From Moniliella sp. 'wahieum' (taxonomy: Eukaryota), in the NCBI GenBank assembly GCA_003971905.1, contig RSEE01000030.1:310001-374000 (forward strand): a DNA stretch of 64,000 nucleotides, read 5' to 3'. The notes beneath the pieces are model-generated. The model searched no databases, was not told the DNA's origin, and saw nothing but the letters and a program-made list of their open reading frames with translations. The first letter of the stretch is position 1. Each line of letters opens with the position of its first letter. This document shows, in pieces, positions 1 to 64,000 of this stretch. The translations under genes and the position numbers were made by a program.

Positions 1-199
1 TGGCTGGGGCATGGCCAGGACGTGGTGTCATCGGTGGTGTCACCGGTCAGTCACTGTCTGGTCACCGTTGTCTTCCAGCGGCCCTCGGGCATCTGACCCA
101 TCGTGGTGGGCGTTGCCTCGGCCGCCGCCATCTTCCTCGCCTTCGTCCTCTGCCACCCCTTCTTCTTCGTCCGCTCCGTTGCCCCTCATCGCCACCGCC

Positions 200-3100
200 A
201 TGTCCGCTGATGTGCTGAAGGCCTACGTCGCTGGCACGCGCGTCTGGCTCCCGGACCAGAAGCAGGCATGGTTAGCCGCTACCCTTTCCACTCCCCCCGC
301 CGTGTCCGATGGCAAAGTCACCTTTCCCCTCGTGATGGACGAGACGGGCGAGGAGAAGACGATCACGCTGTCCCTCAAAGATATCGATGCGGCCCTTTCC
401 GGCAAGGAATCCGCATCGCTCGATGCAGTCGCAACCTCAACGGGCCAACTTGCCACCGGCCAACTTCCACCACTGCGCAACCCCCCTTACTCGAGTCAAC
501 CGACGACCTCACCAACCTGTCCTATCTCAACGAGCCATCGGGTGCGCCCATCTCCCATTCCCTGCGTATGACATGCTGACCCAGATACAGTGCTGCATAC
601 CATCCTCAATCGTTACTCTATGCGCAGCATTTACACATACTCGGGCATTGTCTTGATTGCTGTCAACCCTTTCTACCCGCTCAACCTCTACTCGCCTGAG
701 CTGATCCGCGCCTACAGTGGCCGCAAACGTGGGGAGATGGAGCCCCATCTCTTTGCTATTGCCGAGGACGCGTACCGCTTTATGATCCGTGACGAGAAGG
801 ACCAGACTATTGTTGTGTCGGGTGAATCGTACGTGTCCGGTCCTGTTCTTGGCTGATTAGGACGAGATGCTAACATGGATACAGGGGTGCGGGAAAGACC
901 GTGTCGGCCAAGTATATTATGCGCTACTTTGCTAGTGTGGAGGAAGATGTGGCACCCCACAAAAAGGGCATCAAGAAGGAGACCAAGAGCGGGATGAGCG
1001 AGACAGAAGAACGTATCCTTGCCACCAACCCTGTGATGGAGGCGTTTGGCAATGCCAAAACCACGCGCAACGACAACTCTTCTCGCTTTGGCAAGTACAT
1101 TAGATTCTCTTTGACAACAAGTACAAGATTATTGGTGCTCAAATGCGCACCTACCTTCTCGAACGAAGCCGCTTGGTATACCAGCCTCCGACTGAGAGGA
1201 ACTACCACATCTTCTATCAACTGGTCGCGGGTGTGCCCGATTCGGAGCGCAAGGACCTGGGCCTGTCGGACCCCATGGCGTTCCATTACCTCAACCAAGG
1301 CAACGATCCTGTGGTCAAAGGCGTGGACGATGCCGAGGAGTTTGCTGCCACAAGAAAAGCGATGGAGACGGTAGGCCTGAATGAGGCGACCCAATGGGAG
1401 ATTTTCCGCTTGCTTGCTGCCCTTCTCCATCTCGGCAACGTGCAGATTGGGCAAGTGCGCAACGACGCGCTTGTTGCCGAGGACGAGCCTAGCCTGTTCA
1501 TTGCGACCAACCTCCTAGGGATCGATCCCACGACTTCCGTCGTTGGCTCGTCAAGAAACAAATTATCACTCGTGGCGAGAAGATTGTGTCCAGTCTCTCG
1601 CCTGTAGCTGCGACGGCGGTGCGTGACTCGGTGGCCAAGTATATCTACTCGAGCCTGTTTGACTGGCTGGTGGCCCAGATGAACAAATCGTTGGCCTTGA
1701 ACCCTGACACACAGAACTTGCGTAAGAACATGATTGGTGTCCTGGACATTTACGGCTTTGAGCATTTCCAGACGAACAGCTACGAGCAGTTTTGCATCAA
1801 CTATGCCAACGAACGGCTCCAACATGAGTTCAACGACCATGTATTCAAGCTGGAACAGGAGGAATACGTCAAAGAGCAGATTCAATGGAAGTTCATCGAC
1901 TTTGCTGACAACCAGCCAACGATCAACCTCATTGAGTCTCGGCTCGGCATCCTCTCTCTTCTGGATGAGGAGTCGCGCCTGCCATCGGGTTCAGACCAGT
2001 CCTTCCTCAACAAGCTGTTTACGCAGTTTGACCGCAAGCCCGAGTATCAGAAGGCGTTCAAGAAACCCCGCTTTGGCCACTCGAGCTTTACAGTGTGCCA
2101 CTATGCGCTGGACGTGACATACGAAGTGGATGGCTTCCTGGACAAAACAAGGATACCGTACCAGACGAGCAACTGGCCTTGCTCCAGGCAACCTCCAACC
2201 CCTTTCTGAAGCAAGTGTTTGAGACTGCCTTGGCCCATTCGGCAGCAGAACAGCAGCCTCCGCCTGGACGGCGTCCCCTTGGCCTAATCAAGAAGCCGAC
2301 GCTCGGATCCCAGTTCAAGGTTTCCCTCATTGGCCTGATGGACACGATCGACAAAACCAATGCGCACTACATTCGCTGTATCAAACCCAACGAGGCCAAA
2401 GTGGCCTGGGCGGTGGAACCTCAGAGTATGCTGGGCCAGCTGCGGGCATGTGGTGTGCTAGAGACGATTCGGATCAGCTCGGCGGGCTACCCGTCGCGTT
2501 GGACGTTTGCCGAGTTTGTCCAGCGCTATTACATGCTGGTCCCGTCCAACGAGTCGGGTCATTGGGACACATCAAGCGAAGAGGCGATCAAGTCTTTGAG
2601 CCAGGCCATCCTCCAGAAAGTGGGCGCGGGGCCCGACACGTACCAGATCGGTCTCACCAAGATCTTCTTCCGCGCGGGCATGCTGGCTTCGTTTGAACAG
2701 CGCCGCAAGGACCGGCTCAATGAGCTGGTTACCAACTTGCAGAAGAACGTGCGTGCGCGCATGGCGCGCCGACAATACGTTACCCTCAAAGCGTTACGCT
2801 GCATGTGCAGACGTGGTGGCGGATGCGGGCGGCGCAGCTGGCGTTCGACAAGTTGCGCAAAGAGACGTTTGCGGTGCGCATCCAGGCTGCTGCTCGTGCC
2901 CACCTCGCCCGCACCAAGCTCTTTTCCGCCCAGCGGGCCATCGTTCTGCTCCAAGCGCGTGTGCGGGGCAAAATGGTGCGTGCCCACTACCTTTCCTCTC
3001 GCCTCGACATGGCGGCCGCCCGGCTGCAAGCCTTGCTGCGCGGCGTGCAAGCACGTCGACGGTACGCCAAGGACCGCAAGGGTGTCATTCTCCTACAGAG

Positions 3101-5073
3101 CCTGACACGACGTCGCCTTGCCAAGAAGGAGATGGGGGTGCTCAAGACGGAGGCCAAGTCGGCCAAGCACTTCAAGGAGATCAGCGGCAAACTCGAGAAC
3201 AAATGGAACTCACCCAGATCCTTCAGCAACGGACCAAAGAGGCGCGTTCGAAGGGCACCCAGGTGCGCGACTTGCAAGCTCAGTTGGCCGCCGCCGATGC
3301 CAAGCACAGCGAGACAGAGGGCAAGTTGCGCGATGCTCTGGCGGAGCTCGCCAAACCCACTGTGGCCCTTGCCGAGTACGAGGCACTGCAGAAGCTGCTG
3401 TCGGAGAAGGAGCAGAGCTTACAAGAGGAACAGGCACGCAGCGCGCAGAAGGACAAAACCATTGCCGATCTGCAGGACGAGGGGACCCAGCGAACGCAGG
3501 AGATCGAAGCACACCAGCGGGTCATTACGCAGGCCACCCAGTCGTCCGAGGAGGATGCACAGCTGATCGCGGCGCTGCGGCAGGAGAATGCACAGCTGCA
3601 AGAGCAGCTCAGCCGCGCCCAGACGCTGAATGCTCTGCAAAAGAACTCGGGTCCGCGGCCCGAGGCCGCTGAGCCGTTCCAGCTCTCGCTGGGACGGGAC
3701 CTGGAGGGCCTGGGCCGGCGCAGACGTCCTTCCGATCTTGCCCTGGGCAATGGGGAGGAGATGGAAGAAGCCAGCTCGATCACCCTTGCCAAGCAGGCGC
3801 GGGGAGAGATGGGATTCCCCGACCGCCTGTCAGGCTACGATCTGGGTTCGGACGCCGACCCGCCGAGGAGATCATCCGGCTGCTCGAGAACGAGGAGCAG
3901 CTTGATGAGGATGTTCTCAATGGTCTGATTCTCAACCTGCGGTGCCCTCGCCATCCGCGGCGAACGCCCCTTCGCCCAAGGAAGTTCTCTTCCCTGCTCA
4001 TCTCATTTCGCTCGTGACAAACGAGATGTGGAAGTACGGCATGGTGCGGGAGAGCGAGCGGTTCCTGGCGAACGTGATGCAGACGGTGCAACAACATGTC
4101 ATGACGTTCGAGGACGAGAGTGCGATCGCACCAGGCATCTTCTGGTTGTCGAACGTGCACGAAGTGCTGAGTTTTGTCTGCATTGCTGAGAGCGACATGC
4201 TCCAAGGGATTGGTCCAGGCATGGATATGGACGATGCCGAGCTCAACGACTTTGAATGGGGCGACTACGAGCGATTGGTGACGATTGTCAAGCACGACCT
4301 GGACAGTCTTGAATACAATATCTACCACACCTGGATGCAAGAGGCCAAGAAGGTACTGCACAAGATGGTCGTTCCGGCCCTGATTGAGCACCAGGCGCTT
4401 CCGGGCTTTGTCACTTCGGACGCAGGTGGAAAACTGTTCAACCGTCTTCTCTCGGGCGGGACCGGGGTGCAGTACACCATGGACGATGTCCTGGGGCTGC
4501 TCAACAAGGTGTGGAAGGCGCTGATGTGCTACTATGTTGAGGCGAGCGTGACACAGCAAGTGGTCACCGAGTTGCTCAAGCTGATTGGTGTGACGGCGTT
4601 CAACGACCTTTTGATGCGGCGCAACTTTTGCTCGTGGAAACGGGCGATGCAGATCCAGTACAACATCACCCGAATCGAGGAGTGGTGCAAGTCGCATGAC
4701 ATGCCTGAGGGCACGCTCCAACTCGAGCACCTTATGCAGGCCACCAAGCTGCTCCAGCTCAAGAAGGCTACGCTCGGCGACATTGATATCATCTACGACG
4801 TGTGCTGGATGCTGACCCCGACCCAGATCCAGAAGCTGATTGCGCACTACTATGTGGCGGACTACGAGAACCCAATCTCTCCTGAAATTCTCAAGGCCGT
4901 TGCGGCGCGCGTCGTGCCCAACGATCGTAACGATCACCTCCTGCTCCCGCCCGAAGTGGACGAGCGGGACCGTACGAATTGCCCATGCCTCGCGAGGTAC
5001 CGGCATCGAGACCTACTGCCCGGCCTACCTGGACGTCCCAGTGCTCCGCCGGCTCACCAGCCAGGTCGCCTGA
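200..5073 (+). CDS. MYO2: Class V myosin (motor domain, IQ repeats, coiled coil, DIL/globular tail); introns 542-590 and 829-884; several apparent assembly frameshifts
   Basis: Motifs [28 protein letters not shown]-loop GES|GAGKT split by the second intron, [38 protein letters not shown], IQxxxR repeats, and DIL-type tail [33 protein letters not shown]. Introns have GT..AG ends and CTGAC/CTAAC branch sites. Confidence 0.97.
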
Positions 5074-63271: not shown

Positions 63272-63302
63272 TGAAGCTTGAAGCTTGAAGCTTGAATATT
63301 GA
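63272..63302. repeat. (TGAAGCT)3-TGAATAT-TGA heptamer array
   Basis: Read directly; the same unit occurs at 13003, 19929 and 56283. Confidence 0.9.
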
Positions 63303-64000
63303 GTAGCTAGAAACTTGATCGACTTGATGTTGGACCCACTCTCGTGGGTCCTCGTCACCGGCCACTCTCGCTTCCCACAATCTTCGGCTATTTCTCTCTG
63401 GGCGCCTAGCGGAGGGGCTGGAGTGCAACTGCCCCTCTCTCCCCCCCCACCCTTGTTCCTGTCCATGGCCCAGGGAAAAAGCATGATGCATGAGGCGTGG
63501 CCATTGCTACTGTCACACTGCGCCCTCGGCGCCGGTCACATACACACCTTGCGCCCAGGCAGAGCAAAGCTCCTGCAACTGTCACTGTTGTCACTACAAT
63601 CCTCGCTGAGACAGTCTCCCGCGGCTCAGTCTAGGTCTGTGCCATAGTCATGGTTCCTTGAAGGGTAATGTAGGTTTTGAAGTACCTTTTCGTGCGCCAG
63701 GTCTTTGCTCCCAACAAAAGTCTCTGCTCCTCTTGGCACAACCACACCACCATTGCCATTTCCACTCCTCTGCAGGTCATGGAGAATCTTTGGCCTTTGG
63801 CAGGTACGCCTCTCCTCCCTCCAGGGAGCACGACGGGTGCAGAGGGTGAGGCGAGCTGTGTCCTCTCTCCTTGCGAGAATAACGCTGCTTTCGCCACCCC
63901 CTCCTTTCATCTTGGGCTCAACGGTGAAGACCCTCTTGGATCGCTGCACACCCGTCGCACCCAGACCCCTATCTTTCATGGCCTTAGCGTCACCTGTTCC

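Follow-up and report, generated by a model that had tools for sequence, protein, structure and literature searches.

A TNA-palindrome-TNA unit in a genomic stretch of Moniliella sp. 'wahieum' and its possible origin in break repair

How does a genome come to hold many short units in which spacing and symmetry are fixed and the central sequence is free? The question is raised by a stretch of 64,000 bases (59% G+C) from the fungus Moniliella sp. 'wahieum' (contig RSEE01000030.1, positions 310,001 to 374,000), which as a whole we call the window. An initial annotation of this DNA had listed about 50 units in which a 4-bp palindrome stands between two TNA triplets, and had offered three candidate causes: fold-back or template-switch repair at TNA nicks, repeated footprints of a transposase that targets TNA and works through hairpins, and selection for a signal read by a dimeric protein. 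We define a unit as T[ACG]A followed by a palindromic N4 and a second T[ACG]A, and write TVA for T[ACG]A and TSA for T[G/C]A. Every coordinate in the earlier list carries such a unit, and the full count is now 61 units at 48 loci.

The palindromic unit is both real and striking. A palindromic N4 was found in 61 of the 133 TVA-N4-TVA sites (46%), compared with means of 4.3, 5.0 and 7.7 palindromic sites, and maxima of 8, 12 and 13, in Markov simulations of order 1, 3 and 5 respectively (30 simulations each). As had been stated at the outset, 15 of the 16 possible palindromic tetramers are used as cores, TATA being the missing one; TTA flanks occur in no unit of the window. When the 16 flank classes of the form XNY-N4-XNY were compared, TNA alone was enriched for palindromes (61 of 159 sites, 38%), with the other 15 classes lying between 2.7 and 7.3% and the overall tetramer-palindrome rate at 6.0%. 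The length of the spacer is equally restricted. Only a spacer of 4 bp is enriched (46%), spacers of 2 and 3 giving 28–31% (naive expectation 25%) and spacers of 5 to 10 less than 10%; a spacer of 11 gave 12 palindromic cases that resemble two-unit chains. Among spacers of 0 to 12 in DNA poor in open reading frames (ORFs), spacer 4 is represented by 74 sites and spacer 11 by 47, all others by 23 to 38. Symmetry and spacing are thus conserved rather than sequence, which bears out the original description.

Unrelated DNA does not share this property. In 80 mostly bacterial metagenome loci (877,174 bases), retrieved with the Hsp60 frame of the window, a palindromic core was found in 64 of 956 sites (6.7%), and the two closest of these loci, L001 and L005 (72% and 79% identity, about 2 kb each), are without enrichment (0 of 2 and 1 of 11 sites). 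The enrichment over one site in 16, which had been proposed as a check on the claim, is therefore present in the window by comparison with both the simulations and this control.

To ask where the units sit, two proxies for coding sequence were used, namely the longest-spanning stop-free frame (at least 150 aa) and the domains matched by Pfam among 140 open frames scanned; a gene map built on codon usage was set aside as too weak (only 32% coding). Domains matched by Pfam cover 8,433 bases. A uniform spread would put about 8 of the 61 units there; none is found, and this same sequence holds five non-palindromic TVA-N4-TVA sites. Unit density is 2.7 per kb in DNA that is not spanned by a frame of at least 150 aa and 0.39 per kb elsewhere, so the suggested comparison of coding with non-coding frequency comes out in favour of a non-coding preference. 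An intergenic or intronic position, as first described, is likely, but 19 of the 61 units lie within long open frames that may or may not be coding. The units are also clustered, with 14 in the interval 12300–13012, a further five stretches that hold five or six apiece, and the remainder alone or in pairs. An assembly or sequencing artefact, to which we give almost no credence, would have to restrict itself to non-coding DNA, decay in a graded manner and copy its own flanks, and we know of no artefact that does so.

The triplets on the two sides of a core usually agree. The centre base is identical in 50 of the 61 units (22 TGA..TGA, 22 TCA..TCA and 6 TAA..TAA) and mixed in 11, so the statement that TGA and TCA are mixed freely does not stand for the two sides of a unit; TGA-type and TCA-type units do lie side by side within one gene-free stretch. 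These counts bear directly on the idea that selection maintains the units, as cis-elements or as a structural or chromatin signal that a dimeric protein reads. Clusters in gene-free stretches that include likely promoters (upstream of polyubiquitin, and in the interval between the BRCT and Med31 genes) would suit such a role, and the units TGAAGCTTCA and TGAACGTTCA may resemble heat-shock-element dimers. A site for a dimeric protein should, however, present inverted half-sites at fixed spacing, and inverted flanks (TGA..TCA or TCA..TGA) were found in only 10 of 61 units, the half-sites being direct in 50 of 61. The core is free, with 15 of 16 palindromes in use, units of both orientations share one intergenic region, and each core copies half of its bases from the flank beside it, for which a binding site offers no reason. 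We therefore regard selection for such a signal, the last of the causes first offered, as very unlikely.

This copying of the flank shows in the anatomy of the unit. The 4-bp palindrome is the junction of two flank bases and their mirror image, and the typical unit is a 12-mer of the form [TSA-XY]-Y'X'-[TSA-XY], or the mirror form, that is to say a 5-nt direct repeat around two bases that mirror the adjacent two. Half of the core is repeated in a flank in 29 of the 40 isolated units (left only in 12, right only in 13, both in 4, neither in 11), against 13 of 72 non-palindromic sites in which any 2-nt match was counted. Of all 48 loci, 22 show period-7 identity reaching at least 2 nt beyond the 10-mer on the left, and 21 do so on the right; extensions by 0, 1, 2 and 3 bases number 18, 8, 17 and 3 on the left and 17, 10, 13 and 3 on the right, with peaks at 0 and 2. 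The same structure emerges from an unbiased scan for W5-N2-W5, in which a mirrored spacer is enriched solely at period 7 (13.7% and 13.4%, versus 4.2–6.5% at periods 5, 6, 8 and 9), and most of these period-7 mirrored 12-mers (28 of 42 and 31 of 41) have TCA, TGA or TAA as the remaining triplet. The side on which the flank matches is not associated with the centre base (G-right 4, G-left 5, C-right 4, C-left 3; Fisher p = 1.0), and TGA..TGA and TCA..TCA units are equally frequent, a strand symmetry that fits a two-fold symmetric 7-bp target centred on S. The duplicated target is accordingly better given as 7 bp (nn-TSA-nn) than as the 3-bp TNA.

A 3-bp duplication is what footprints of PIF/Harbinger- or CACTA-like elements would require, the core then consisting of two bases from each inverted terminal repeat. 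Both superfamilies make 3-bp target duplications, like the TNA flanks, and two bases contributed by each inverted-repeat end would indeed make a 4-bp palindrome. Against this, the 15 cores would need about 15 families with different termini, and cores derived from element tips would not repeat the flank, as they do in those 29 isolated units. The centre is mostly G or C, whereas the usual Harbinger target is TWA, and the window contains no such element. This origin is in our view highly improbable.

The match to one flank only could be original or could result from decay. In the one-sided units the non-matching flank agrees at neither of its two bases in 13 cases and at one of them in 12, which is near chance. 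After background subtraction there are about 22 units with one broken core pair and about 58 perfect ones, which as a rough estimate suggests a divergence of roughly 9% per site. At that level most 14-bp duplications should still match both flanks, and only 4 of 40 do. Since the mismatched flank looks random and core decay is modest, the match was confined to one flank from the start, and the units are not 14-bp duplications that mutated later. Old units do exist in the window, as is evident from the decayed chain at 56111–56136. Three other parses were discarded: a plain 7-bp tandem duplication followed by decay does not fit the random-looking other flank, an asymmetric 5-bp duplication starting at TGA is ruled out by the strand symmetry, and the inverse parse, in which the palindrome is the target and TSA the scar, is contradicted by the finding that only 2 of 21 pal4-TVA-pal4 11-mers lack a flanking TVA, both in one decayed array.

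Chains of units invite comparison with heptanucleotide microsatellites. The heptamer in such chains can be written as Y'X'-T-S-A-X-Y, a 7-bp palindrome with a free centre in which the core is the junction between copies, and quasi-palindromes of the type nn-T[C/G/A]A-nn account for 15 of the 30 exact period-7 stretches of at least 14 bp. Heptamers already of this kind might slip or fold into hairpins as they are replicated and so multiply, free of any nuclease, as a structure-driven 7-bp microsatellite, with quasi-palindrome correction then making perfect 10–12-bp palindromes. Such slippage would account for the arrays, the longest of which holds six 7-mer copies, and for the 7 of 10 mixed-centre TGA/TCA units that read as perfect 12-bp palindromes. 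Chains of two to five overlapping units nevertheless make up only 8 of the 48 loci, the other 40 being single units; two full head-to-tail copies, or 14 periodic bases, are reached at 11 loci, leaving 37 below that length, and what the loci share is a grammar and not a sequence. In 25 of the 40 isolated units there are only 12 periodic bases and a random-looking other flank, which 7-mer duplication cannot produce. Slippage also leaves the T-S-A centre unexplained, and a 3-bp stem with a 1-nt loop cannot fold. As a general origin of the units we consider it unlikely.

We favour the reading that each unit is the scar of a repaired double-strand break, made with a stagger at the 7-bp target ab-T-S-A-cd and most simply through excision of a cut-and-paste transposon whose target duplications measure 7 bp, and put the probability of this reading at about one half. 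What we observe is the anatomy, symmetry and location given above; from these we infer a hairpin chemistry, a stagger of 7 bp and a mobile element, which could combine as follows. A target ab-TSA-cd (S being G or C, sometimes A) would be cut with a 7-nt stagger, and insertion would duplicate the 7-mer to give a target site duplication (TSD). On excision, both flanking ends would be closed as hairpins, which is also the case for hAT, Mutator, Transib and RAG. A nick about 2–3 nt from the hairpin tip would produce a self-complementary 3' overhang, 2k nt long for a nick k nt from the tip, with the opposite 5' end recessed by k; these overhangs would read cd-d'c' on the left and b'a'-ab on the right. 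Once the overhangs, equal in length, had been superimposed and each nick sealed, a heteroduplex would result in which the top strand is the TSD, k mirrored bases and the TSD minus its first k bases, and the bottom strand is the mirror product. Replication or mismatch repair would then yield either ab-TSA-cd.d'c'-TSA-cd or ab-TSA-b'a'.ab-TSA-cd.

The predicted outcome is always a gain of 7 bp, always a 4-bp palindromic core, and exactly one flank that repeats half of the core. Openings with k = 2 and k = 3 would give the same product, because target positions 3 and 5 are T and A, and k = 4 or 5 would flip the centre base and keep the flank match; 7 of the 10 isolated mixed-centre units do keep a flank match, as deeper hairpin opening predicts. 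Each scar would offer two new TSA targets, one of them in a fully palindromic heptamer, and because of this, repeat hits or slippage could extend chains of period 7 with the same core. Such a model would account for the fixed gain of 7 bp, the free 4-bp palindrome, the one-sided match and the near-equal left and right classes. In a generic scan 83 14-mers fit k = 2, and 59 of these have TCA, TGA or TAA centres. The transposase footprints with hairpin intermediates that were among the initial suggestions are thus the candidate favoured by the anatomy.

Several points weigh against break-repair scars. The window yielded no transposon-end-like inverted-repeat pair of at least 18 nt (the 24 pairs listed are GC-rich, of low complexity or within genes), no 7-bp nnTNAnn duplication flanking a 10-of-12 terminal inverted repeat (the four candidates come down to two AGTCACT arrays that match one another), no 3-bp TSA duplication flanking a 13-of-14 repeat, and no transposase domain in any of the 140 open frames. 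With no resident element, a density of about one scar per kb would mean very heavy past activity. The outcome is far more uniform than that of known hAT footprints, and heterogeneous junctions were not seen, the excess being confined to spacers 4 and 11, although the scoring pattern catches regular units only and irregular scars would slip past it. TSA-centred 14-bp duplications without a palindromic core, which the model would permit, number only two. The 11 of 40 isolated units that match neither flank exceed the decay estimate, and the four that match both compare with 6.8 expected if the sides were independent, so that the exclusivity of the sides is not proven. The product TSA-pal4-pal4-TSA is absent from all 69 sites, which fits the overlay step and was not predicted beforehand, and the variable k makes the model flexible. 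TAA..TAA flanks occur at five loci, all on the plus strand (6998, 12300, 17281, 40559–40566 and 49361), and TTA..TTA at none (two-sided p of about 0.06, on small numbers), whereas a strand-symmetric process predicts both. The TAA at 17281 doubles as the stop codon of the frame 16561–17283.

The same chemistry could operate on breaks made without a mobile element, which is what the suggested fold-back repair at TNA breaks amounts to: a host or domesticated nuclease, or an abortive transposase, would repeatedly cut nn-TSA-nn with a 7-nt stagger, and the 7-bp scar would arise directly in the repair. The whole anatomy of the unit fits this equally, the window shows neither element nor transposase, and the uniform outcome is easier to reconcile with one coupled enzyme than with loose end joining. 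Simple fill-in after a staggered cut would, however, yield unmodified 14-bp duplications, of which there are the two already mentioned, and flank hairpins are known from transposases and RAG. To our knowledge there is no nuclease of the nn-TSA-nn type, though no search for one was made. We assign a low probability to this element-free account.

Excision footprints in known systems provide the closest published parallels to the scars that we favour. Flank hairpins are described for Muta1, hAT, Transib and RAG; their opening may fall to a nuclease of the host, for example Artemis (PMC5499845). For Ac/Ds, by the account in PMC5873905, footprints in Candida, yeast and plants contain palindromic P-nucleotide insertions, and 28 different footprints were counted among 128 events in fungi. 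Footprints of this hairpin type, as these two sources present them, resemble our units in that duplicated target bases flank a palindrome made of flank bases and their mirror, the palindrome being set by the site and not by the element (PMC5873905, PMC5499845). The two hallmarks of a P-nucleotide footprint are found in the window, as a direct target repeat stands on both sides (among 40 isolated units it reaches 5 nt on one side in 25 and on both in 4) and the inserted bases are the reverse complement of the adjacent flank. There are also clear differences. The hAT duplication is 8 bp, whereas period 7 and a T-S-A centre are seen here; in place of the 28 Ac/Ds types so reported there is nearly a single product; and the scars here are a bulk component of the intergenic DNA (about 2.7 per kb where ORFs are scarce), with no element known.

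P-type excision leaves remnants of the element ends and not flank hairpins. Within the P superfamily, Galileo makes 7-bp duplications with the free-centre palindromic consensus GTAGTAC (PMC2775673). As given there, the duplication shares with our target its length of 7 bp and its quasi-palindromic form around a free centre base, and differs in that the target sequence is fixed, whereas only the central T-N-A is fixed here (PMC2775673). In the literature searched, no sequence-level description of the TNA-palindrome-TNA grammar was found, and searches within PMC8120014, PMC4824034, PMC9603552 and PMC5023962 yielded nothing on the subject.

A further parallel comes from the subphylum to which the fungus belongs. 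The conserved hypothetical protein encoded at 44132–45970 (minus strand) has named homologues in Tilletiaria anomala (43% identity), Tilletia, Jaminaea and Parajaminaea, its best match being an unnamed protein with 64% identity; together with the Zn(2)Cys(6) domain these homologues place the window in or near the Exobasidiomycetes (Ustilaginomycotina). In Ustilago maydis, 'numerous small (10 bp) repeats' have been reported, of which 26 lie between effector genes in cluster 19A (PMC4081816, citing Laurie et al. 2012 and Schirawski et al. 2010), and these scattered '10-bp repeats' were suggested to be transposon footprints (PMC4081816). Among the papers searched, this is the only one to mention them. 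As so described, they have in common with our units the subphylum, the size, the intergenic position, the large number, the apparent absence of elements and the proposed origin: the units too are about 10 bp long, numerous and intergenic in a member of the Ustilaginomycotina whose DNA, as far as the window goes, is poor in elements. The comparison rests on the description in PMC4081816, and one-sided templating and a 7-bp target are not part of that description as far as it is used here. A parallel with the TCACGA/TCGTGA heptamer arrays of Ustilago had been suspected at the outset, and it survives in this form rather than in the words themselves, as TCACGA and TCGTGA are not enriched in the window (8 and 6 occurrences) and two longer forms occur 0 and 1 times. 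The general footprint idea is already in print for a related fungus; in the sources as consulted, the grammar, the symmetric 7-bp target and the one-sided templating were not found described.

The units, clusters and arrays are listed in Table 1 together with the genes of the window.

Table 1. Positions of palindromic units, arrays and Pfam-supported genes in the 64,000-base window.
Feature	Position	Strand	Remarks
Single unit TCA-CCGG-TCA	40..49		
Single unit TAA-ACGT-TAA	6998..7007		14-bp period-7 stretch GTTAAAC x2 at 6996-7009
Single unit TGA-ACGT-TCA	9514..9523		Mixed centre; with flanks a perfect 12-bp palindrome
Single unit TGA-ACGT-TGA	10981..10990		Match on left flank
Single unit TGA-GTAC-TGA	11681..11690		
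Densest cluster, 14 units	12300..13012		Cores ACGT, TGCA, GGCC, CTAG, TCGA, GATC, AGCT
AGTCACT array, six copies	12774-12815		CTAG core
Near-continuous chain	12921-13018		TSA every 6-8 bases
Single unit TGA-AATT-TGA	15114..15123		
Two units	17281..17572		TAA-CTAG-TAA at 17281, TCA-CTAG-TCA at 17563
Five units	19532..19945		CATG; CTAG x2; AGCT x2; upstream of polyubiquitin start (~19129, minus), downstream of Hsp60 gene end (20448)
Single unit TCA-ATAT-TCA	23287..23296		
Single unit TGA-GTAC-TCA	28018..28027		Mixed centre; at upstream edge of Vip1/PPIP5K frame
Six units	31910..32668		TCGA, CCGG, CGCG x2, GGCC, ACGT
8-bp-period relative, CGCGTCAC x2	32639-32656		Within 31910..32668
Single unit TGA-GGCC-TGA	37704..37713		
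Six units	40100..40575		ACGT, TTAA, CATG, AATT, CGCG x2 (= CGTAACG array)
Single unit TCA-TCGA-TAA	43804..43813		
Single unit TCA-TGCA-TCA	46507..46516		
Single unit TGA-TTAA-TGA	48920..48929		
Single unit TAA-CATG-TAA	49361..49370		
Single unit TGA-CATG-TGA	54536..54545		Zn(2)Cys(6) gene frame, just past domain; coding versus intronic unsettled
Single unit TCA-ACGT-TGA	55121..55130		Mixed centre
Decayed three-unit chain CATG-TGA-CATG-cGA-CATG-TGA-CATG	56111..56136		One T-to-C centre-triplet change; outside the 61
Five units	56283..56525		AGCT; two TCATGCA arrays
Two ACGT-core units	61753..61774		Between BRCT gene (minus) and Med31 gene (plus)
Six units	63124..63493		GCGC; AGCT x3 + ATAT; TGCA
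AGCT x3 + ATAT chain	63270-63302		Followed by stop-rich GTAGCTAG
Myosin V	about 874-5363	plus	Pfam
Polyubiquitin	about 17990-19129	minus	Pfam; five 228-bp repeats, 90% alike
Hsp60	20445-22215	minus	Pfam, Cpn60_TCP1 family
GATA factor zinc-finger domain	36415-36519		Pfam
BRCT protein	frame ends at 61718	minus	Pfam
Med31		plus	Pfam
PTH2, Vip1/PPIP5K, TBC protein, HODM-like protein, AD-domain protein, Zn(2)Cys(6) factor			Pfam; further supported genes

Some sequences near the catalogued units are related to them without fitting the definition. Exact 8-bp tandem duplications (ACGTTCAC, ACGTTCAT, CGATGACG and CGCGTCAC, at 12924–12939, 31834–31850, 31914–31930 and 32639–32656) hold TCA or TGA with a 4-bp palindrome or near-palindrome and look like units with one base added. 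Sites of the form TVA-N6-TVA with a 4-bp palindrome at the edge number 28, against about 14 expected, and may be scars with two extra bases. TCA-TA-GCGC-TCA is found at 5207 and 12215, with related TSA-NN-GCGC-TSA forms at 32290 and 49956. A stop-rich run, TGAGTAGCTAGAAACTTGATCGACTTGA, directly follows the AGCT/ATAT chain (63296–63330), and a similar run, GTAGCTAGTAA, precedes the chain at 40559, with stops in several frames on both strands. Repeats of another type than the heptamer units are also present, as in the hexamer array (GGTTGA) x10.7 at 61513–61576 (93% matches), which lies within the frame of the BRCT gene and has TGA in one frame only. The region 32000–38100 is a very GC-rich block (65–71% G+C) with many overlapping long frames on both strands and low-complexity repeats of CCA/CCACCACCT and GCT, and the units at 32120–32668 and 37704 fall within long frames of this block.

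The chaperonin gene of the window encodes a mitochondrial-type Hsp60/GroEL and not a CCT, and is about 60% identical to bacterial GroEL genes. Its C-terminus carries GGM repeats, which derive from the 9-bp repeat GCCCATGCC x4.7 at 20451–20492, and the frame is split in two, probably by an intron near 21265–21365.

If the units are scars, they would document past DNA breakage and would not be a regulatory code, with at least 48 independent events recorded in about 15 kb of ORF-poor DNA. The target, the distance at which the hairpin was opened and the strand that was kept would be readable for each event at base resolution, so that nature would have laid down, across the genome, a record of how hairpins are opened and ends are joined in a basidiomycete. 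Scars would also allow past transposon activity to be dated and mapped in genomes that seem free of transposons, and would supply a mechanism for the birth of stop-rich, palindrome-rich promoter and terminator DNA and of heptamer microsatellites. The 12-mer signature could make the footprint suggestion for U. maydis testable. A more speculative possibility, which we hold to be doubtful, is that an undescribed cutting system, either a new transposon group or a domesticated transposase, cuts nn-T(G/C)A-nn with a 7-nt stagger, makes flank hairpins that open at a fixed distance and so writes one stereotyped 7-bp insertion with a palindromic junction at each event, the U. maydis repeats being its product. 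Were this true, intergenic DNA and heptamer microsatellites throughout the smut-fungus subphylum would owe much to such a system.

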